64,000 nucleotides of DNA from Candidatus Hermodarchaeota archaeon (GTDB lineage: Archaea > Asgardarchaeota > Hermodarchaeia > Hermodarchaeales > Hermodarchaeaceae). Below are positions 26,761 to 52,331 of the stretch, piece by piece. The DNA lies in assembly GCA_016840065.1 (NCBI GenBank), contig JAEOTB010000010.1, positions 33,629-97,628 on the forward strand, given 5' to 3'. Numbering within the stretch: the first letter of the stretch is position 1; each line of letters starts with the position of its first letter. Position numbers and translations under genes: made by a program. Below the pieces are notes generated by a model. The model did no database searches. It was given only the letters and a program-made list of their open reading frames with translations, and was not told where the DNA came from.

Positions 26761-29100
26761 CTAATATCGGAGGAACGGTTTACCTTTGACAATACGGCTA
26801 ATAATCGAGTTAATTTTCGCTCGCTTTACAAGGTCTTCAAAGCGCCGTTTAATATGTAGCATATTCACCTTCTCAGGTTTCACACGAAGTTTCTTGGCTA
26901 GTGCTATGAAGAGGCGCTCGAAATCATAGATTAGAAGCCTCTTCTCCTCCTCACCTTCACCGACGGCGAGTCCCTGCTCAATGGCAACACGCAGCTCGTT
27001 TATGTAGTACACCTTCGCCTTTTCAAAGCTCATTTCCTTTTCTTTTATTAGCTCCTGTAAGAAGGGGAGGCCAAATTTTGACCGGGCTATCTTCTCAAGA
27101 CGCGCTAAGAGGGCGTTTAGAACGTCATCATGCGACAACTGATCGTAGTCTTCAAGCTTGGTCGGAATCTGTCTGACAAGTTCCTGATCTTCAGTCAATG
27201 AACCAGAAAGTGGTACAGGCTCTGTAGTTATCGTGGTCTGTGTCTTCGGTTTTGGTGTAGTTCTTGTTTTTGGTTTGGTCCTAGTTCTTGTTTTTGGTTT
27301 GGTCCTAGTTCTTGTTCTAGTTCTGGTCTTTGGTGTGGTTTCGGTCTCTACTGTTGGCTCTGGAACTGTAATCTTTACTGTCGGCTTTGGCGTAGTGATT
27401 TCTACCGTTTTTTGTGGTAGGATTTCTACTGTTGGTTCTTGTGTTGTAATCCTTATTGTCGGCTTTGGCGTAGTGATTTCTGTAGTTGTTGGCTCGATAG
27501 CCGCATGGCTTGGTCTTGGTGCTGCCGGTTCTTGAGTTGGCTTTGGTACACCAGCATCACGGGCCCCTCTTGGTTTTGGCTCGATAGTTTCATGTGCAAC
27601 ATCAGGTACAGGGGCATCAGTAACTGTCGTCGGTGGGGGAGTTACAGGGTCTTGTTTTGGTATCGCTTTTGGAGTCTTGAACTGTCGCTTAGCGGTAACC
27701 TTTGGAATCTTGGTCTTTGGTTGTTGTTCAGTTGCTGAAGGAGTTTTAGGCACTTGCTCCGTTTTTCCTTTCAACTGTGGTCTAGGTGTAGGATCCATAT
27801 CGAAGCTCAGAATTTTCTTACCTTGTGCAAGTCGTTGGACATCATCTTCAGTCAAGGTAAGATGCTGAGTAAGGAGCCACCGGGTTCTGACGCGAATCAT
27901 GTTATTCGGTAAAGTAGGATTAACAACAAGGAACCTAGCGAGCGTTAAACGAGAAATCTCGTCGATGAGAGGTGTTTGGTTCTGCTCACCAATAGATTGG
28001 TCCAGCAGATGCTGAATCGTCTTTTGTGATTGCGGCGAAATAATGCGACCTAGTCCTAGAGTATTGAATTGATCAAAAGCCTTGTAATCGAGATCCCTAG
28101 GAGACTGAGTGGCCACCATACAGATAATACCATACTTTCGGGCTTGACGGAAAAGCATCAGAAATGTATCCTTAGGACCTGGCTTAAGGGTACCTGCTGG
28201 CACAAAAGGCGCAATCTCGTCTGTGAAGAAGATTAGCCTCGGTGTTTTCGATGATCCTTGCTGAAGCATCCAAGAATACATCTGACTTAGGAGGATGGAA
28301 ATGAAGAACATCTTCTCCTCCTCGCTCCTTAGTGTTTTCAAGAAGAAGATGTTTAGCGGAGTTTTTCCATCTACTTTCTCAATAACTCTTGAGAAGTCGA
28401 TGGGTTCACCAGTGCTGAAGAGGAGTTGAGAGGTTCCTATCGTTAAGCTGCGTATCGCATGGCTCAAGCGCACCCGCTCAGCTGGTTTCATGTACTTATC
28501 TAAAGGGATTCCCAGCTCCTCTGGTGTGAGGGCAACCAAATCAGCTAGCTCGGATAAGTTGCTTATTTCACGCTTTCTGTCCCAGAAGAACTTCAATATC
28601 TCAAAGATAACCGCAAAGGCTCGGCTCTCATGAGTTCCTGGCAGTCCTGCGGTTTTAATTAACACTCGAACGAGTGTACGTGACGAGTTATCTATAATCC
28701 GAATTACGTCCTCTGGGTCAGCCTTGCGACTGGGCAAGACAAGTGGGTTAACTGAGATGCGAGAGCCCTTTGAGCTAGCTGGGGTGAAAATTCGAACCGC
28801 GACTTTCTCCTTGAATTCCTCTTGCAGCTCCCGGCTTATACCATTTCTTTCTAGCTCCTCGGGATTACCTGGCATGGCTAGACTCGCAAGGTCTCCCTGT
28901 GGATCAAGAGCAATAATAGGGATTCCATGACGCGCCGCCTCCTCGAGAATAATCTTACAGAAGACGGTTTTACCTGAACCTGTCGTTCCAAACGTTCCAA
29001 GATGACGCCTAAGCATATTAGCATCGAGATGGACAAGTTTGTCAGTGATTTCCCCGTCTGCAGTAAATTCATAGCCAATCCAGAACTTCATCATACACAC
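26761..29100 (-). CDS. HerA/DUF87-DUF853-family P-loop ATPase with a Pro/Thr/Lys-rich linker and C-terminal helical domain
   Basis: RHLGTFGTTGSGKT, LDPQGD, FFTDEI, RQARKYG, ATQSP. Confidence 0.88.
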   Translation of the reverse strand: MCMMKFWIGYEFTADGEITDKLVHLDANMLRRHLGTFGTTGSGKTVFCKIILEEAARHGIPIIALDPQGDLASLAMPGNPEELERNGISRELQEEFKEKVAVRIFTPASSKGSRISVNPLVLPSRKADPEDVIRIIDNSSRTLVRVLIKTAGLPGTHESRAFAVIFEILKFFWDRKREISNLSELADLVALTPEELGIPLDKYMKPAERVRLSHAIRSLTIGTSQLLFSTGEPIDFSRVIEKVDGKTPLNIFFLKTLRSEEEKMFFISILLSQMYSWMLQQGSSKTPRLIFFTDEIAPFVPAGTLKPGPKDTFLMLFRQARKYGIICMVATQSPRDLDYKAFDQFNTLGLGRIISPQSQKTIQHLLDQSIGEQNQTPLIDEISRLTLARFLVVNPTLPNNMIRVRTRWLLTQHLTLTEDDVQRLAQGKKILSFDMDPTPRPQLKGKTEQVPKTPSATEQQPKTKIPKVTAKRQFKTPKAIPKQDPVTPPPTTVTDAPVPDVAHETIEPKPRGARDAGVPKPTQEPAAPRPSHAAIEPTTTEITTPKPTIRITTQEPTVEILPQKTVEITTPKPTVKITVPEPTVETETTPKTRTRTRTRTKPKTRTRTKPKTRTTPKPKTQTTITTEPVPLSGSLTEDQELVRQIPTKLEDYDQLSHDDVLNALLARLEKIARSKFGLPFLQELIKEKEMSFEKAKVYYINELRVAIEQGLAVGEGEEEKRLLIYDFERLFIALAKKLRVKPEKVNMLHIKRRFEDLVKRAKINSIISRIVKGKPFLRY
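27258..27316. repeat. 24-bp tandem repeat (about 2.5 copies) encoding TKPKTRTR
   Basis: tagttcttgtttttggtttggtcc x2 plus a partial copy. Confidence 0.9.
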
Positions 29101-35549: not shown

Positions 35550-36164
35550 CTAATCTATACCTGTTCTACGTGCTAACTCGAGAAGTAATAATGTGATTAT
35601 TTGGCTCCCCAAAAGACTTTTTTCTCCTACACCAATTTTCCAGGCGTTCTGTTGCATCAACAGGGTTTCATGCTCGGGTGGTACGCCTTGATGATCACCC
35701 AGAACGAAAACAAGAGGTACCGAAGGGTTAATTTCGGTCTTCGCTAGGGGTTCACCCCCCTCAACTAGATAGAATAATTGCCCTTGTTCTCCTACTATGT
35801 CTTCAAGTGACTCTGCAAATCCTTTTCTTGTAACTGAGAAATGAGGCCAAACTTCAACTTGGGCTGGGTTTTGAGTCTGGGCACGTGCAAGCAAATCTTT
35901 CAGTAAAAGAGCACACGCAAGCCCGCTCTCAGGAACCATTCCCGCCAATACCTCCCTTACCTGGAGGAGGAGTGGCGGGTTTGGAGGACCACCAAGTACA
36001 GAGAGAAACCGTATGCTAGGACACAATTCAGGTACGCTTCGAAAGGTGGCTACTAACACTCGGCACAAAACGTCTAGTCGTCCACTCGTACCAGCAACGT
36101 CACGTATGAGAAAGTCTCCTGAAGTACGACAGTGAATTGCATCAAAGAGAACAGTTAGACGCAA
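35550..36164 (-). CDS. trmY: tRNA (pseudouridine54-N1)-methyltransferase
   Basis: SGRLDVLCR, FVLGDHQG, SPOUT fold. Confidence 0.9.
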   Translation of the reverse strand: MRLTVLFDAIHCRTSGDFLIRDVAGTSGRLDVLCRVLVATFRSVPELCPSIRFLSVLGGPPNPPLLLQVREVLAGMVPESGLACALLLKDLLARAQTQNPAQVEVWPHFSVTRKGFAESLEDIVGEQGQLFYLVEGGEPLAKTEINPSVPLVFVLGDHQGVPPEHETLLMQQNAWKIGVGEKSLLGSQIITLLLLELARRTGID

Positions 36165-36225
36165 AGGATTCCCTCAAACATATACCCAAAAATAGAGTGC
36201 CTCGAAACACTCCGTTGAATGAGGA

Positions 36226-36510
36226 TTATTGTCTAGACTTAGATTTCCTGGAGTCTCGGCTTCGGATAGTCACGACTCCTCGATGAACGGCACATGAAAT
36301 GCAATACCATTTTGAAATTTCACGGCGGGGCATAACGGTACCCGCTCGTCGAAGCTCTCTTGCCATCTGCGGGTCCACAAAAGAGGCTCTTGTTGTACGG
36401 CGCTTCGCCTTATCGCGGGGCACTAATTTCCCGCATTGAGTGCATTGAACTGAGCTTCCTCGGCCTTGTGAGCCTTTTCTTCGACCTTGACTCTTTCTTT
36501 TTGATGGCAA
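36226..36510 (-). CDS. rps26e: 30S ribosomal protein S26e
   Basis: PSKRKSQGR, VQCTQCG..VPRDKA, YCISCAVH. The likely start is TTG 36510. Confidence 0.95.
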   Translation of the reverse strand: MPSKRKSQGRRKGSQGRGSSVQCTQCGKLVPRDKAKRRTTRASFVDPQMARELRRAGTVMPRREISKWYCISCAVHRGVVTIRSRDSRKSKSRQ

Positions 36511-36640
36511 TGTCTTTTCATCTCGTAATATCCTATGCAAGTCGCTATCCTTGTGATCGGACTATCAGCCTGCAGTTTCAAGGGAGCATACAAAAGCCCC
36601 TTTCATAAACTTTGTGTTGAGAACGCTCTTTATCTTCGTT

Positions 36641-37069
36641 TCAATCGATTGTTCGACCTGATTCTGCTAAGGGGTGTCCTAAGCATTCCAGTCGAAAGGC
36701 TTTGTACCAACCAAAGGGTGCAATGTGTACAGTAAAACCTAGCTTTCCAAGTTCTTCAGCAAGAGTTTGTAACATACGTACTGCATACTTTGGTTTGGCG
36801 AGTTTTCGTGCGAAGATATGTGCGTGGGGGTAAACTACAATCTCTTTCACTTTCACGCGCTCTGCGACTATCTGAAGTTCCAAGGCTGCCTTCCCAGCTA
36901 TCGAAGACAGTCTGCCTTCATCACTGGTTTCGACAGCGCAGAAGGCAGTAAGACAGTTCTCAAATTCTTTCCACACGCCCTCTTCAGCGTCGTCACGTAC
37001 ACTAATTTTAACTGGCTCTGTTGCCTTGTAGGCGAGTTTTCCGTGAAAGATAAGCAATCGCAAAATCAT
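36641..37069 (-). CDS. Free-standing archaeal threonyl-tRNA synthetase editing domain
   Basis: MILRLLIFH, VYPHAH, APFGWYKAF..CLGHPLAE. Confidence 0.92.
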   Translation of the reverse strand: MILRLLIFHGKLAYKATEPVKISVRDDAEEGVWKEFENCLTAFCAVETSDEGRLSSIAGKAALELQIVAERVKVKEIVVYPHAHIFARKLAKPKYAVRMLQTLAEELGKLGFTVHIAPFGWYKAFRLECLGHPLAESGRTID

Positions 37070-37086: not shown

Positions 37087-38466
37087 TCATATTTTGATTT
37101 CTTCTCTTGTTTTCTGAAGATACCTCAAGCCTTGTTTAGCGAGTTCTTCTGCCCGGGCGTGGGTCTTTGCTTCGGCGAATATCCGGAACTTAGGCTCGGT
37201 TCCTGAAGGTCGGAGGAGAACCCAACCATCTGAGTATCGGAGTTTTATTCCGTCTAGTTTGTCACACTTGATATCTGTTGGTATCTGTTCAGCCACTCTC
37301 TCTAATAGGATTGCTTTTTCATCGTCGGTACAGGGCAATCCCGTTTTTACCTGTGAATATGATGGAAAACGTTTGTCTAGCTCGTTTAGCGATGCTTCTT
37401 CATGGGCTAGGAGACCCAGGATTGTTAATGTAGTAAGCAGTCCCTCTCGGGTCCAAGACCAACCATTGTAGATTACTCCCCCATTCTCTTCTCCTCCTAT
37501 CTGGGCATCCACCTCCTTCATTTTCGCAACGATGTTTGGTTCACCGACCTTCGTGAGAACCACTTCCGCGTCTATGGTTTCTGCAACGTCTCGAATAACA
37601 TCGCTCGTTGCCACTTGAGTGACTATTTTCTTATGTTTAACAGGGCTATCTCGTAACCGATAGTAGGCGGCAAGAGCAAAGCTACGATCGCCCATAATGA
37701 AGCGCCCCTTATGATCGATGAAAACTACACGGTCTGCATCGCCATCCCAAGCCATACCAACGTCTGCTCCAGTCTTTACTACTTGGTCCTTAAGCTTTCC
37801 AAGGTTTTCTTCCTTAGGCTCAGGATGTCGTCCTTGGAAGAGACCATCAGGGACACAAAATTGTGTTTCCACCTGACAGCCTGCCTGCTTCAGAAGTCGG
37901 GGGATCATTACCGATGCGGCTCCTCCGCCACAATCAGCTACAACGCGTAATCTCTGCTTCCGAATCCTACTACAATCTACCTGCTGAAGTAATTCCTGAG
38001 TGTAGAGGGGACGGAAATCTTCTGTTATGAGAGGCTTCCCGAAGAGTTTCCAAGAAACTCTGCGTTTTGACTCAGGTTGAGCAAATAATTGCTCTATCAG
38101 ACGTTCTGGCTTCGAGGTGTAAGATGCTCCGTCTTTACCCCATAATTTGATGCCATTGAATTCAGGAGGGTTATGGCTAGCGGTCACCATAACGCCTGCA
38201 GTGCTGTTTAACCTTGGAATGGCAAAAGACAACAGGGGAGTAGGAACAAGACCTAGATAATAGACATCGCAGCCTCCAGTCATCAAGCCTGCGCTAACAG
38301 CGTGGTTGAGCATTTCATTTGATGTGCGTGTATCCCAAGCGGTCACGACTGGCCCCTTACCATTCAAGGAGTTTGCTAAAGCTAGACCTACACCATATGC
38401 CATTGCTGGTGTAAGAGTCTCATTAACTATAGCACGCAAACCCTGCGTTCCAAAAAGCCGACTCAT
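37087..38466 (-). CDS. glmM: Phosphoglucosamine mutase / PMM-PGM (paralogue 1)
   Basis: LFGT.G.R, TASHNP, DGDADR, GGEENGG, RPSGTEP. Confidence 0.9.
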   Translation of the reverse strand: MSRLFGTQGLRAIVNETLTPAMAYGVGLALANSLNGKGPVVTAWDTRTSNEMLNHAVSAGLMTGGCDVYYLGLVPTPLLSFAIPRLNSTAGVMVTASHNPPEFNGIKLWGKDGASYTSKPERLIEQLFAQPESKRRVSWKLFGKPLITEDFRPLYTQELLQQVDCSRIRKQRLRVVADCGGGAASVMIPRLLKQAGCQVETQFCVPDGLFQGRHPEPKEENLGKLKDQVVKTGADVGMAWDGDADRVVFIDHKGRFIMGDRSFALAAYYRLRDSPVKHKKIVTQVATSDVIRDVAETIDAEVVLTKVGEPNIVAKMKEVDAQIGGEENGGVIYNGWSWTREGLLTTLTILGLLAHEEASLNELDKRFPSYSQVKTGLPCTDDEKAILLERVAEQIPTDIKCDKLDGIKLRYSDGWVLLRPSGTEPKFRIFAEAKTHARAEELAKQGLRYLQKTREEIKI

Positions 38467-38569: not shown

Positions 38570-39301
38570 CTAGAATACGTTTAGAGGCCTACTCCTAGTA
38601 GATGTCGAGACAAGTGCTCTTGTGGTTTCTATATGCGTTCCTATCTCCTTTCGGATTGTCTCGATTCGCTCTGACTCAAGGTAGGGTTCCAATGTCCAAA
38701 GAAGTAGATGGGTGTACAATTCCTTAGGATCGATTATCTCTTCGATGTTACCAATTACCTTCATCCGGAACAGATACTCGTCCTCGTACATACTCACAAT
38801 AGTGCGTAGTTTCTGTGCAAGAGACTCGACATTGTCTACTAGCTGTCTTAACTTACGGTCTGGTTTCTCAGTACTTTGCAGCAATTCGGCTGCCCTGCGC
38901 TGTAAACCGCTCACCTGCTCGGTCATTAACCGCATCTTCCGGATTACTCCCTCGAAATCAGGAGCCAGAGCAAGGAGCTTTGGCAGAAGCTTATCAAGTT
39001 CCTCGAGGTTCTTAACCACCGCTTTGTCTACAATCCCTTCAAATGAAGCGAGCTTCCCAAGATCCTCGAGGTTCTTAAGGAAGTTAATCTTAGAGAGCGC
39101 TCCAAGGATTACTCGAATAGGACGAAGAGAGTTACGATGTGTCGACTCCCAGCGTGACATAGCGTCGTCTAGCCCACTCGTTACTTCCCGCATGGTGCGG
39201 CCAAACTCTCGGATTATTGCTGCCAAACTTCCATCGTCCACGGCGATTGTCTCCATAAGGTCTTTTTCTTGCCTTACTCGGAACTGATTCTTGTCTGTCA
39301 T
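38570..39301 (-). CDS. Helical-bundle protein, probable CINP/C1orf109(AIRIM)-like
   Basis: MYEDEYLFR...DP...LLLWTLEPYLES resembles the recalled CINP C-terminus. Confidence 0.55.
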   Translation of the reverse strand: MTDKNQFRVRQEKDLMETIAVDDGSLAAIIREFGRTMREVTSGLDDAMSRWESTHRNSLRPIRVILGALSKINFLKNLEDLGKLASFEGIVDKAVVKNLEELDKLLPKLLALAPDFEGVIRKMRLMTEQVSGLQRRAAELLQSTEKPDRKLRQLVDNVESLAQKLRTIVSMYEDEYLFRMKVIGNIEEIIDPKELYTHLLLWTLEPYLESERIETIRKEIGTHIETTRALVSTSTRSRPLNVF

Positions 39302-39407
39302 TCTATGAATAACCAACGTATTGCAGGGATTTAAACAATGCGCTTCAGGAAACGAATAAACGAACACTGTTAAGTATTCCTAACATCATTTTTTATCAGG
39401 TGAAAAC

Positions 39408-40793
39408 ATGGACGGAGAGTGGCGCCCGCGCTTTGGAAGTAGTGGAATTCGAGGCTGTGTTGCTGAGGAATTGGCGCCAAATGAAGCTTGGTTTCTAGGT
39501 AATAGCATCGCTACGGTCTTTAAGAGAGGTTCGATTCTGGTCTGCAGCGATCATCGTACCAGTAGCCCGCTCCTAGTCCACTCTCTTGCCAGTGGCCTCA
39601 TGTCAGGTGGTGCCCGGGTTGTCCTTGGGGGGCAAGTAATTACTCCAGCTGTGAGTCTATATGTCAAGCACCATCAGCTATCAGCAGCTGTTCTCGTTAC
39701 TGGCAGCCATAATTCCCCAAAAATTAATGGAATTGAAGTCCTAGCAGACGACGGGGCTCCTGTGGACCGCGCCACTGAGCAGCGAATTGAAGAGCTTACT
39801 GTGAGCCCACCTGCTCCTCTTCCTTGGGATCAACAAGGTGAAACCACCTCAGTCGACGATGTCGGTCAATACTGGGTAACAAAGATAACTCGTCTTGTGA
39901 ACACATCTCTTATCCAAAAACAAAATTTTCGCGTGGCAGTAGATGTGTGCAATGGTTCAGCAATCCCTTGGCTCCTAAATGTAATTGAAGAGTTAGGTTG
40001 TCAACTAGTAGGTGTTAATACTAAACAAGACCCTCTCTTTCCCGGTAGGTCTCCTAACCTAACCGTTGATTTACTCACTGAGGTCTCAAATACAGTACTG
40101 GAGAATGGTTGCCACCTAGGTGTGGCCGTTGATGGAGACGGTGACCGAGTGTTCCTAATTGACGAAAAGGGTCGAACATTACAAGGCGACATAAGTGGAA
40201 CAATCTTTGCCCGTCTAGAGCTAGAACGCCAGAGTGGAGGCACGATTGTTACCCCAATTAATACTAGCAATGTTGTCTATGATATGGCTCGGGAATTCAA
40301 AGGAGAAGTAGTGAATAGTCGAATTGGACCACCAGCTATTGTAGCCAAAATAAAAAGCCACCAGGCTATATTCGGGTTCGAGGAATCTGGGAAGGCAATC
40401 TATCCGCATATAAATTATCTTTCAGATAGTGGGTTAGCAACAAGTCAGATTCTTGAATACCTCGCCAAAAACAACATCAAACTTAGTGTCTTAGTAGACA
40501 GCCTCCCCAAGTATCATCAGATAAAGCGCTCTCTAGATTGTCCTAATTCAATGAAAGGAAAAGTGATGAAAGGGCTAATTAAGGTGCTGAAAACCCAATT
40601 CGTCAACGCGGACTTCGTAACAATAGATGGGTTGAAGGTAATATTTGACGACGGGTGGCTACTACTAAGACCCAGTGGGACTGAGCCAAAATTTAAAGTC
40701 TTTTCAGAGTCACAATATGCGCCTCGCGCTGAAGAACTATTTCAAATAGGCTTGAGTTATCTACAAAAGGAAATGAGTCGCTACCCAAAATGA
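39408..40793 (+). CDS. Alpha-D-phosphohexomutase (paralogue 2)
   Basis: FGSSGIRG, TGSHNS, DGDGDR, RPSGTEP. Confidence 0.9.
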   Translation: MDGEWRPRFGSSGIRGCVAEELAPNEAWFLGNSIATVFKRGSILVCSDHRTSSPLLVHSLASGLMSGGARVVLGGQVITPAVSLYVKHHQLSAAVLVTGSHNSPKINGIEVLADDGAPVDRATEQRIEELTVSPPAPLPWDQQGETTSVDDVGQYWVTKITRLVNTSLIQKQNFRVAVDVCNGSAIPWLLNVIEELGCQLVGVNTKQDPLFPGRSPNLTVDLLTEVSNTVLENGCHLGVAVDGDGDRVFLIDEKGRTLQGDISGTIFARLELERQSGGTIVTPINTSNVVYDMAREFKGEVVNSRIGPPAIVAKIKSHQAIFGFEESGKAIYPHINYLSDSGLATSQILEYLAKNNIKLSVLVDSLPKYHQIKRSLDCPNSMKGKVMKGLIKVLKTQFVNADFVTIDGLKVIFDDGWLLLRPSGTEPKFKVFSESQYAPRAEELFQIGLSYLQKEMSRYPK

Positions 40794-48142: not shown

Positions 48143-51100
48143 ATGGCTACAATGCGGGTAAATCAGTCGGTTTCACTTCTTTTACTAGTCGTTATTTTCT
48201 GCTCAATTCTTCCAACCCAGGGAGTTGGTAAAGGAGCTACTATTACGGAACCAAATCAGCATCCCCAAATATCTGATTCAATAGATGGTTCTCTGCCATC
48301 GCCTTCCTCTTCATCCGCCAATCAGGGCGTAGCCATCTCATCCATAACTCCACCTGCTCCTCCTGATACTCTTGAATTTACTGGCGCTCAGCGGTCAACT
48401 GAACTCCAGTGGAACCTTACCCAATCCTTCTATAATCAGAATCAGAGCTCTGCTGTTCAAGTTACCGCTAGCGGTGGGTTCCTAACACAAGAAGCGTTGA
48501 ATTTCACCCAAATTACGGTCCACAATGCGACGGTTACCATTGAAGATGACGTACTATGGTATTATGGTATTCCTAAGGATATCCCAATTTTCATGGGCTA
48601 TCAGATACGTTGGAATTCCACAGAGCGACTCGATGGGTTCTGGATGGCTTTTCGAACAGGTTCAGGAGGAAACGCTTATTATGCCGTCTATGCCGCGGAA
48701 AATGGTACTTACCCACACGCCCAACCCAACGTCTCTGCAATTATTGTACCACCGACTTTGATATCCATTCCCACACTCAGTTCTAATGATTGGGTCTGGT
48801 TTGAAACAGACGAATCCTCAGCTATACTAGATTCAGCCTCTACTTACAATAACACATTTTTTGTCTCCGTCTGGAGAACCCAAGCTCAAACAACACTCGA
48901 AATACTCGGAAATGATGATTATTTTCAAGGAATAGTGGGCCAAGACAACGTCGACGAAGGGGAAGCATATGTATCCACGACACTTTGGGATTCAGACTTC
49001 CTGCTCAAGACTGAGGTTTCTCGGAAAGAATATCCTGAAGACATCAATATGAGGGTAAACACCTATCCAGTGGCGAATAGTACAATACTTGGGGCGGGAT
49101 GGTGGGATTACGAACTTCCTTCTCCTTTTGACATGACTAGCCTCCAATCACGCTACTATGCTGTGACATCCTCATGGATTGATCTGACTTTTGATTGTGA
49201 TTGGATTGGTTGGTTCAAGAAAACTGCCAATGCCAATACAACATTCCAGATTTGGACAGATAGAACCTATACAGCTTGGAACGTTACTGTGGATGCAAAC
49301 TTTCCAGTCAGTGCGTATGATCAATTTATCATGGTAGATGTGGAACCATCTTGGACCGTTCATAACGTTACTCACGACGGCTTGAATCACACCGATTGGT
49401 CTCTTTGGTCAAACGGGGGAGCCTTCTATGTGTTGATTGATTCAGCAAGCGATGGTGAATGGATAATACATTGCACCGCATTCAACCATGTCGCGGATGT
49501 AGAGGTTCGAGACCTCGAAAATAATATCATCACAGAAACAAACGCCACTGAAATCGTAAACATTCAAGGCTACCTACAAGAGACGATAGGCACGAACATC
49601 ACCTCAGGTGACGCTTATCTCTATGTATACGACTCATATGACATCCTAAACTACACTTATAGTAGCTCTGTTCAAACGCCACCCGGAGGCATCTCGGAAT
49701 TCGAATGGATAATCAATCAGACGGTCCACACGGCAATAGTGCCTAGTGAATATACTATTCAAATCGCTTGGACGAATGGCACAGCGGCAGGAATGAACAG
49801 CACCCTCTTCACCGTGCTGCCAATGACACACTTGAAAATGATTTCGGAAACTCCCAAGCCAGGTACGGAGCTAACACGCACTCAGAAAATAGTATTCACG
49901 GCAAAATATACGACCCATGATGGGACTCCTCTAGAAGCTGCCACAATTACCGTGATAAATGACACAAATCAGGAGCCTTGGAATTCATCGGATACTACCC
50001 ACATCGGCGATGGAAAATACGTCATAGAAGTGGATGTTAACAACGCCCAGGTGGAAGTAACACATCACATCACTCTCGTGTTCAACCAGAGTTCCTACGT
50101 CGAACAGAACTACACCAGAAGCTTCGTTGTCATTACAGTCCCGTTATTTGCAGATTTAATCGAAGGATATGGATGTAGCTATGACTCTGGAGAAATGCAA
50201 TGGTTTGCATTACCCGATCCATACATCAATGATACAAGTTTACAATTTACAATAAACGTGACTGGTGCTGATGGTACAGGAGTTAGCGGGGCGCATCTAA
50301 CACCAACATTACATTGGAGTGGATTCACCAAGACATTAATTGGAGTTGACTTGTGGGAGGATACCAAATTACCTGAACACTTTGGTCTCTACAATATCAC
50401 CATAGATACTACTCCAATTCAAGGCGTTTCCTTTCACGATGGGGATGAACCCTATATCCAAGTGCTAGTAGACATGTTGGATTTCGAACTAGCTCTTACG
50501 GAACCCCTCTACATTCAACCAAAAGCGCGTCCTTGTTATATCGATGTTCAGCCAGAATTTGAAAACATCCAGTTATATTCCAATTGGACATACGCGGTTC
50601 CACTGCGTGTTATCCTTCGTGATAATATTACTTCTGAAGACTTCAGTCACGGCACTGTAACTGCTGAATTCCCTGTAATAGGCAACATCACCCTTGAACT
50701 TGCAACTCCTGGTATTGGGTTTTACGAGATTCCAGCCCTTGATACATCGACAATCCCTAGCGGAACGTATCTAGTGACTATTCGCTCCAATGCCAGCGAC
50801 TACCTTCCATCTGAAACCTATATTACGTTGACAATCCTTCAGAAGAGCACTATTAGGCATACTATAACAATCAACAGCCAGCCACCTCCTAATTTTGGTA
50901 CAGTGGTGCAGCTGGAGGCGTGGTTCTTCTTTGAGGGCGGTAGTAGTAGCACAAGGCAAGCCAGTAATCCTCTCCCTGAAGGCACAAGGGTGCTCCTAGA
51001 AATTGAGACAACCGCTGGCAACCTTGAGCCAGTAATATTGTACTTAGATATTGATGGTCATTTCGTCTACTCGTTTACCTTGGACCGTGAGGCAGTCTAC

Positions 51101-52195
51101 GAGTTCTATGTCACCGTCGAAGGATCCGAGGAGTATTCAGGCCTCAGCCGCCAATCCCTTGAGGAGAGTGAGGGGAATTCCGCTAGTGTTTCGGTTGTTC
51201 ACCCCTTCACTACATTTGTAGGTTACCTGCCTTGGATCGGGTTGGTTGCTGCTGTCGCGATAGGCAGTGTTGTAGGGTATCGACAGTTTGTCGTTCTTCC
51301 TAAACGTCAGGACCGTCGCAAGAGGCTCCAATCAATCTCTGATGCGTTCAGTGATGTAGCTAATCTCACACGGCTACTGGTTGTCCATAAGGAGAGTGGT
51401 GTATGTATATTCGAGCCCTTCGTCGACGAGAGTATGGACGCCACCCTCATGGCAGGTTTCCTCCAAGCCATCTCTACCTTTGGTGTTGATTTAGGTCAAA
51501 GTGGTGACCTTGCCGAAAAGGGTCAGGCAGCATCTGAGCTTCGAGACATAACCTACCAAGGATTCAAAATCCTCCTCCATGACGGTACATTCGTACGAAC
51601 CGCCCTAGTTCTCAGTGGCGACCCCAGCCCCCAGCTCCGAGAGCGCCTAGAAATCTTCACCTCTAAATTCGAAGAACAATACAAAGGCTACTTTGACCAC
51701 TGGACCGGACGTATCGACCAATTCAACAGCGCAAGCCACCTTGTTGAAGAAATCTTTGTAGTATCACTACGGCTCCCCCATCGAGTAGCTCCTAGACGTC
51801 CCCGAGGTGTTTCATTATCAGATCTTGAGAACCGCCTTTACAAGATTGCCAAGGAGCTCACTAAGGATCGTGAATACCTCTTCTTAGGACAAATAGCAGA
51901 CACATACTTAGCGGCTGCAAAAGAAGACAAACTAGAAGTGTTCATGGCCCTCTTTGTGCTGCGCCAAAAAACCCTCCTCATTCCTTGGAAAATAAAGCCA
52001 TCTCTCCAAGGTGAACTACCCTTCCCTGAGACAACAACCGCTGATACTGAACCCGAAGATGTTCTACTACCACAACCTCCGTCCGCGCCCGAAGACGCCC
52101 CACCAGAACAACCGTCAGAGAAGGAGAGTCAAGAGAATAGTGAAACCTCACCTCCGTTTCCTCCATTCGAAGACCAAGAAACAGATCCTGAATGA
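48143..52195 (+). CDS. Large single-pass surface protein with Ig-like ectodomain and cytoplasmic longin-like domain
   Basis: Signal peptide, many NxS/T sites, TM near aa 1030, then LLVVHKESGVCIF...LMAGFLQAISTFG. Confidence 0.85.
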   Translation: MATMRVNQSVSLLLLVVIFCSILPTQGVGKGATITEPNQHPQISDSIDGSLPSPSSSSANQGVAISSITPPAPPDTLEFTGAQRSTELQWNLTQSFYNQNQSSAVQVTASGGFLTQEALNFTQITVHNATVTIEDDVLWYYGIPKDIPIFMGYQIRWNSTERLDGFWMAFRTGSGGNAYYAVYAAENGTYPHAQPNVSAIIVPPTLISIPTLSSNDWVWFETDESSAILDSASTYNNTFFVSVWRTQAQTTLEILGNDDYFQGIVGQDNVDEGEAYVSTTLWDSDFLLKTEVSRKEYPEDINMRVNTYPVANSTILGAGWWDYELPSPFDMTSLQSRYYAVTSSWIDLTFDCDWIGWFKKTANANTTFQIWTDRTYTAWNVTVDANFPVSAYDQFIMVDVEPSWTVHNVTHDGLNHTDWSLWSNGGAFYVLIDSASDGEWIIHCTAFNHVADVEVRDLENNIITETNATEIVNIQGYLQETIGTNITSGDAYLYVYDSYDILNYTYSSSVQTPPGGISEFEWIINQTVHTAIVPSEYTIQIAWTNGTAAGMNSTLFTVLPMTHLKMISETPKPGTELTRTQKIVFTAKYTTHDGTPLEAATITVINDTNQEPWNSSDTTHIGDGKYVIEVDVNNAQVEVTHHITLVFNQSSYVEQNYTRSFVVITVPLFADLIEGYGCSYDSGEMQWFALPDPYINDTSLQFTINVTGADGTGVSGAHLTPTLHWSGFTKTLIGVDLWEDTKLPEHFGLYNITIDTTPIQGVSFHDGDEPYIQVLVDMLDFELALTEPLYIQPKARPCYIDVQPEFENIQLYSNWTYAVPLRVILRDNITSEDFSHGTVTAEFPVIGNITLELATPGIGFYEIPALDTSTIPSGTYLVTIRSNASDYLPSETYITLTILQKSTIRHTITINSQPPPNFGTVVQLEAWFFFEGGSSSTRQASNPLPEGTRVLLEIETTAGNLEPVILYLDIDGHFVYSFTLDREAVYEFYVTVEGSEEYSGLSRQSLEESEGNSASVSVVHPFTTFVGYLPWIGLVAAVAIGSVVGYRQFVVLPKRQDRRKRLQSISDAFSDVANLTRLLVVHKESGVCIFEPFVDESMDATLMAGFLQAISTFGVDLGQSGDLAEKGQAASELRDITYQGFKILLHDGTFVRTALVLSGDPSPQLRERLEIFTSKFEEQYKGYFDHWTGRIDQFNSASHLVEEIFVVSLRLPHRVAPRRPRGVSLSDLENRLYKIAKELTKDREYLFLGQIADTYLAAAKEDKLEVFMALFVLRQKTLLIPWKIKPSLQGELPFPETTTADTEPEDVLLPQPPSAPEDAPPEQPSEKESQENSETSPPFPPFEDQETDPE

Positions 52196-52256: not shown

Positions 52257-52331
52257 TGGAGCCGAGGCAGGGATTTGAACCCTGATAGATCAGCTCTGCA
52301 GGCTGACGCGTAGCCACTCCGCCACCTCGGC
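52257..52331 (-). tRNA. tRNA-Cys(GCA), intronless, CCA encoded
   Basis: GCCGAGG acceptor stem, TCAGC-CTGCAGA-GCTGA anticodon arm, GTTCAAATC T-loop, ending TCCA. Confidence 0.96.

Follow-up and report, generated by a model that had tools for sequence, protein, structure and literature searches.

The locus examined here raises the question whether an Asgard archaeon carries a relative of CINP and C1orf109, which in human cells bind the N-domains of SPATA5 and act as adaptors (PMC12019325), and, if it does, how one archaeal gene relates to two eukaryotic ones and what its product may do. In the human 55LCC complex, two T-shaped CINP-C1orf109 heterodimers and the N-domains of SPATA5 and SPATA5L1 together form a ring above the ATPase (PMC12019325). 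We analyzed a stretch of 64,000 nucleotides, in the following called the window, which corresponds to contig C69 of an Asgard MAG with a size of 2.59 Mb and a completeness of 84%. The gene in question, whose product is referred to as P0001, and the elements that matter for its identification are the following:

38570..39301, minus strand: CDS of the CINP/C1orf109-like protein P0001, stop codon 38570-38572 included
39302..39407, between two divergent genes: intergenic region of 106 bp separating the P0001 gene from the plus-strand phosphohexomutase gene at 39408-40793
39041..39151, minus strand: residues 51-87, N-terminal conserved block, W51...S58...I62...L81-G82-x-L84-x-x-F87
38666..38800, minus strand: residues 168-212, most conserved block of the family, I-V-x-M-Y-E-x-E...K...P...Y-L-x-x-W-x-x-E-P-Y-L-E

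The reading frame starts with ATG at 39301, ends with the stop codon at 38572-38570 on the minus strand and encodes 243 amino acids. Both peptides that the initial annotation had singled out, LGKLASFEGIVDKAVVKNLEELDKLLPKL in the middle of the protein and IVSMYEDEYLFRMKVIGNIEEIIDPKELYTHLLLWTLEPYLESE in its C-terminal part, are present in the translation. A longer frame of 265 amino acids could begin with GTG at 39367, and its 22 additional residues enter the 106-bp divergent region. From the nucleotide sequence, a TATA-like TTTAAAT at 39335-39329 (minus strand) is a putative promoter element of the P0001 gene, and since it lies about 28 nt 5' of the ATG at 39301, this codon is probably the start and is preferred over the GTG. 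That the gene is real and conserved is shown by its presence in 16 of the 18 genomes of the window's own family and by dN/dS values of 0.05-0.065 against three orthologues from the same genus, which reveal strong purifying selection; it is also single-copy. Neither PF15011 nor the Asgard profile described below detected a second copy in the window's genome, at its completeness of 84%. The closest homologues, with 59-93% identity, are hypothetical proteins from MAGs labelled 'Promethearchaeota' or 'Candidatus Hodarchaeota'.

As a single sequence, P0001 yields evidence for a resemblance to CINP and C1orf109 that is marginal but specific. The Pfam family PF15011 (C1orf109-like, CA109-like) matches residues 38-187 with 27.1 bits at a gathering cut-off of 27, and phmmer against the PDB sequences retrieves four human CINP chains with E values of approximately 0.015-0.02. 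In these alignments residues 170-212 are paired with human CINP ...MYRKELLLKRTVAKELAHTGDPDLTLSYLSMWLHQPYVESDS, taking in MY..E.L.K...DP...YL..W..PY.ES, which bears out the C-terminal CINP pattern pointed out in the initial annotation. DUF3198, COG6_N, Sec10_N, MCPsignal and other weak Pfam matches, together with the PDB match 'Protein quaking', fell far under the cut-offs and were set aside as helical or low-complexity noise.

Profile comparisons establish homology of P0001 to both CINP and C1orf109 over its whole length. A profile built from 17 Asgard sequences (A1) found CINP with an E value of 5.7e-5 and C1orf109/AIRIM with 0.036, and its search of 1.84 billion representative proteins returned 113 matches that fell into four groups. 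Among the profiles made from these groups, A2 represents eukaryotic CINP (human CINP 2e-40, C1orf109 8e-8) and A3 the eukaryotic C1orf109-like proteins (C1orf109 1e-15, CINP 6e-7). A4 consists of further Asgard proteins (CINP 8.6e-11, C1orf109 0.055), and those of its members that could be named come from Asgardarchaeia, Promethearchaeota or Hodarchaeota MAGs. When compared by hhalign, the Asgard profile aligned with CINP at a probability of 99.75% (E 2.5e-27, 189 columns, score 174.8) and with the C1orf109-like family at 99.4% (E 3e-21, 192 columns, score 142.9), and both alignments were collinear over the full length; CINP and the C1orf109-like family matched each other at 99.4% (E 6.6e-22). 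In the opposite direction, a profile of the eukaryotic C1orf109 family retrieved the P0001 locus at E 3.1e-20. These matches go beyond a generic coiled coil, and the proposed homology to both families holds.

The predicted structure points in the same direction. AlphaFold2, run with an alignment of 17 sequences, folds P0001 into an all-helical bundle (mean pLDDT 86, pTM 0.79), in line with the earlier description of an all-helical protein of about 240 residues. Helices are predicted for residues 23-76, 90-110, 113-143, 149-188, 192-204 and 210-236, and residues 1-17 and 235-243 are disordered. The model has the five-helix bundle fold of the solved CINP and C1orf109 chains, and when it was compared with the PDB by Foldseek, as the initial annotation had proposed, the natural proteins among the top matches were CINP or C1orf109 chains exclusively. 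Since helical bundles score high structurally by background, this margin counts only alongside the sequence evidence.

The conserved residues concentrate in the two blocks listed above. Across the Asgard sequences the invariant or near-invariant columns of the C-terminal block are I168, M171, E173, E175, L177, L199, W202, E205 and P206, and the block aligns with MYRKELLLK...MWLHQPYVES of human CINP. W51, L81, G82, L84 and F87 are invariant in the N-terminal block, which is shared with the 'W..LQ...nYG.L' block of C1orf109-like proteins and carries the alignments to PF15011 and C1orf109. P0001 therefore contains the motifs of the superfamily, i.e. the N-terminal W, the 'G.L..F' turn and the C-terminal MY(E/R).E...K ... 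W..(E/Q)P(Y/N), and the Asgard motif residues align with the consensus both of CINP and of the C1orf109-like proteins. Overall identity is 16-18% with human CINP (PDB 8cih, 9gwj_B, 8rhn_C, 9lgo_J) and 14-15% with human C1orf109/AIRIM (PDB 9gwj_A, 8rhn_A, 9lgo_H; PF15011). P0001 differs from the former by an unstructured N-terminus of approximately 20 residues, and where the eukaryotic C1orf109 family has QPNI in the C-terminal motif, P0001 has EPYLE.

The family as such is known. The suggestion that P0001 is an unlisted eukaryotic signature protein has to be given up, because Köstlbacher et al. (bioRxiv 10.1101/2024.07.03.601958; Nat Microbiol 2026, PMC12962969) had already reported Asgard homologues of CINP in 2024 and 2026. 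In that work these 'CINP-like' (CINPL) proteins are classed as isomorphic ESPs; structure and profile searches recovered them from five major Asgard clades, Hodarchaeales among them, and from no further prokaryotes, and eukaryotic CINP is sister to Hodarchaeales in the published tree (PMC12962969). P0001 fits the definition of CINPL, being an Asgard protein in the range of about 200-240 amino acids that is found by CINP-type profiles and has no other prokaryotic homologue among the named matches, and it belongs to the same family of Asgard-only prokaryotic CINP homologues. In the accessible text of the paper CINPL is related to CINP alone and C1orf109 occurs only in the title of a reference, whereas in our analysis the same gene also matches the C1orf109 family and is the sole such gene per genome. 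What is added here is modest: the relationship to C1orf109, the evidence for a single copy, the negative results on gene context and the occurrence of both paralogues across the eukaryotes.

The explanation that accounts best for these data, to which we assign as a whole a probability of roughly 0.6, is that P0001 is a member of the Asgard CINP-like family, a bundle of long helices of about 220 residues that is homologous to both paralogues of the 55LCC heterodimer, that it represents the state before these were duplicated, and that by analogy it would serve as an adaptor of a Cdc48-type ATPase. Following the human complex, P0001 may self-associate and act as a small helical adaptor of a Cdc48-type unfoldase of archaea, docking on the N-domains of this enzyme and directing it to substrates of ribosome assembly or replication, as its eukaryotic descendants do for AFG2/SPATA5. 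Taken on its own, this mechanism is tentative, and participation of P0001 in a different complex has a similar probability. Two features of the human system do not carry over directly. C1orf109 binds the N-domain of SPATA5L1 in 55LCC and SPATA5L1 is without an archaeal counterpart, and the contacts of human CINP with GTPBP4 and ES27A use eukaryote-specific elements (PMC12019325) and are not to be assumed for P0001.

We looked for links to Cdc48 and to candidate substrates in the genome of the window and in its relatives. Two Cdc48-type genes are present in this genome, on contigs C102 and C15, neither of them near the P0001 gene. Each of the 41 relatives (41/41) has an orthologue of the paralogue A N-domain, regardless of whether it possesses the CINP-like gene, and clear orthologues of the paralogue B N-domain occur beyond the window's family only in families lacking the CINP-like gene; co-occurrence of the CINP-like gene with a Cdc48 paralogue thus gave no positive signal in the 41 relatives. 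Co-folding of two copies of P0001 (residues 20-236) with the N-domain of paralogue A scored 0.02 against a mark of 0.32, a value that speaks neither for nor against binding. When searched with PF01246, 40 of the 41 relatives each showed a single L24e gene, and no second paralogue accompanies the CINP-like gene, so that the eukaryotic substrate Rlp24 is without a separate counterpart in these relatives. The L24e proteins of the window's family have a basic C-terminal tail. The protein comprises about 86 amino acids in the window's genome (contig C81:120-290) and about 63-75 amino acids in other Asgard families; in the sister genus (L046, 378-794) it reaches 138 amino acids, and its tail is Lys-rich and of low complexity. 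Outside the window's family tail length does not follow the presence of the CINP-like gene.

The immediate surroundings of the P0001 gene comprise the following genes:

35550-37069, minus strand: translation-related run downstream of P0001 on the same strand (ThrRS editing domain, eS26, RNA methyltransferase)
37087-38466, minus strand: phosphoglucomutase/phosphomannomutase-family paralogue, 459 aa
39408-40793, plus strand: phosphoglucomutase/phosphomannomutase-family paralogue (phosphohexomutase), 461 aa, divergent from the P0001 gene
40816-42228, plus strand: phosphoglucomutase/phosphomannomutase-family paralogue, 470 aa
42225-43553, minus strand: nucleotidyltransferase/hexapeptide (GlmU-like) gene

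The three phosphohexomutase paralogues that flank the P0001 gene share 31-36% identity with each other, and the order PGM1-CINPL-PGM2 is conserved in every family member examined; these flanks are conserved within the window's own family only. The run at 35550-37069 is small and comprises genes for an archaeal ThrRS editing domain that stands alone (PF08915, 142 aa), for ribosomal protein eS26 (104 aa) and for a SAM-dependent RNA methyltransferase (PF04013, 204 aa). Distant Asgard lineages show different contexts, with genes for PolB, MetRS, RNase HII, SUI1 and Roadblock, and a Cdc48-type neighbor was found in none of the gene contexts read, be it in the window's family or on the distant Asgard contigs. 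The neighborhoods are not conserved beyond the family, and no function is deduced from them.

An alternative, about as likely as the adaptor mechanism, is that the protein is a homologue by descent whose archaeal role is independent of a Cdc48-type ATPase, for example as a scaffold in replication or repair. Such a role would agree with the missing linkage to Cdc48 in gene context and phyletic pattern, with the family-B DNA polymerase genes beside or near the gene on the distant Asgard contigs L020 and L024, with its position directly upstream of RNase HII on contig L024, and with the fact that replication complexes were the first setting described for CINP (references given in PMC12962969). 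Against a function in replication, the replication neighbors vary between lineages, and in the window the downstream genes on the same strand encode a phosphohexomutase, the ThrRS editing domain, ribosomal protein eS26 and the RNA methyltransferase.

The Asgard profile finds the gene in 132 of 400 Asgard genomes, clearly in about 128 of them, from approximately eight GTDB families; in several large Asgard families it is absent or gives weak matches only. Members of the family distant from the window protein share 17-26% identity with it across these roughly eight families. Every gene-bearing genome has one locus, the few double matches being fragments at contig ends, and a search of all 400 genomes in six frames with the eukaryotic C1orf109-family profile revealed no second gene of the C1orf109 type and matched the same loci. 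In the library of 1.84 billion proteins no prokaryotic homologue outside Asgard occurs among the named matches, some matches being unnamed. Among the sampled prokaryotes the family is restricted to about one third of the Asgard genomes. On the eukaryotic side, the C1orf109-like group includes Lactuca (At5g43822 family), Vanilla, a chlorophyte, Cyanophora, Pharyngomonas and Paratrimastix, and the CINP group includes Piromyces, Rhodelphis and Stephanoeca. The eukaryotic CINP-like and C1orf109-like matches (P0059, P0072, P0085, P0091, P0052, P0060 and P0064) are scattered over distant supergroups, with plants, a glaucophyte, Discoba, Metamonada, an anaerobic fungus, Rhodelphis and a choanoflagellate as hosts.

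A maximum likelihood tree of 80 rows (LG+C20 PMSF, unrooted) resolves into three clans, Asgard (support 100/97), CINP (99/76) and C1orf109-like (98/94), with stem lengths of approximately 0.49, 0.23 and 0.48, respectively. The stem of CINP is the shortest, and the archaeal proteins consequently resemble CINP more. Because the CINP and C1orf109 groups each span distant supergroups, their duplication predates the last eukaryotic common ancestor (LECA). The position of the root, and hence sisterhood, is unreadable from the topology of an unrooted tree with three clans, which fits equally a duplication on the eukaryotic stem and an older duplication after which the Asgard archaea lost the C1orf109 copy. 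The simplest history is that of one archaeal gene which was duplicated on the eukaryotic stem before LECA, and P0001 probably represents the unduplicated state. Of the single pre-duplication homologue proposed in the initial annotation, the single copy is thus supported in every gene-bearing Asgard genome, and its pre-duplication status is plausible on this unrooted tree.

Simple orthology with CINP fits the closer proximity of the Asgard proteins to this family as well. Under this alternative P0001 would be a strict orthologue of CINP, and C1orf109 would be a paralogue that is older or arose independently and of which archaea lost, or never had, a counterpart. Both Asgard profiles favor human CINP (A1, 5.7e-5 vs 0.036; A4, 8.6e-11 vs 0.055), as does the hhalign score (174.8 vs 142.9), and Köstlbacher et al. 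class the family as CINP. We nevertheless consider strict orthology doubtful. It requires that a copy of the C1orf109 type was lost from every sampled Asgard lineage, and none was found in 400 genomes; the Asgard clan lies outside the CINP clan (99/76); the closeness is explained by the short stem of CINP, 0.23 as compared with 0.48 for C1orf109; and the similarity between the Asgard proteins and C1orf109 is not below that between CINP and C1orf109. The Asgard proteins form a single clan in our tree, whereas eukaryotic CINP stands beside Hodarchaeales in the tree of Köstlbacher et al.; the two studies differ in sampling.

A more far-reaching reading, unlikely in this combined form, is that P0001, as the unduplicated ancestor-type of both 55LCC adaptors, also caps the N-domain ring of a Cdc48 in archaea as a homo-oligomer. 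If this were true, an adaptor-capped AFG2-like unfoldase for substrates of ribosome assembly or the replisome would predate the eukaryotes, and the description of CINP and C1orf109 as 'human-' or 'eumetazoan-specific' additions to the Drg1/AFG2 machinery would not hold.

That the Asgard genes are not ancestral and were gained from eukaryotes by horizontal transfer is very improbable. Their patchy occurrence within Asgard, with 132 of 400 genomes and several large families without the gene or with weak matches, would agree with such a transfer. Against it, the Asgard clan (100/97) is nested in neither eukaryotic clan, the Asgard sequences are single-copy and deeply diverged (about eight families, 17-26% identity to P0001), and Köstlbacher et al. 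interpreted their phylogeny as vertical inheritance. Convergence or chance resemblance between generic helical bundles or coiled coils is hardly credible in view of collinear full-length profile alignments (E 2.5e-27 and 3e-21), shared particular motifs (W51, the G82 block and MYE...W..EPY), top natural structural matches that are all CINP or C1orf109, and named matches, among the 113, that are all Asgard or eukaryotic.

CINP was termed 'human-specific' in the 55LCC paper (PMC12019325), and another recent paper on 55LCC, relying on reciprocal BLAST, called the complex 'eumetazoan-specific'. Both labels are contradicted by the published Asgard work and by the occurrence of the two paralogue families in distant eukaryotic supergroups, which together with the single homologous gene in some Asgard archaea makes the adaptor older than the last eukaryotic common ancestor. 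P0001 offers a tractable single-gene archaeal model for the CINP-C1orf109 heterodimer.

Some further observations concern the remainder of the window. An ORF of 1350 amino acids at 48143-52195 (plus strand), which had no Pfam match at E 1e-5, is followed by a tRNA-Cys (GCA) at 52257-52331 (minus strand). Between 58001 and 60000 the G+C content amounts to 0.525 as opposed to about 0.46 in the rest of the window, and neither rRNA nor another Rfam family was found in this part. About 10 kb upstream, at 26761-29100 on the minus strand, a HerA-type helicase of 779 amino acids (PF01935, PF05872) is encoded.
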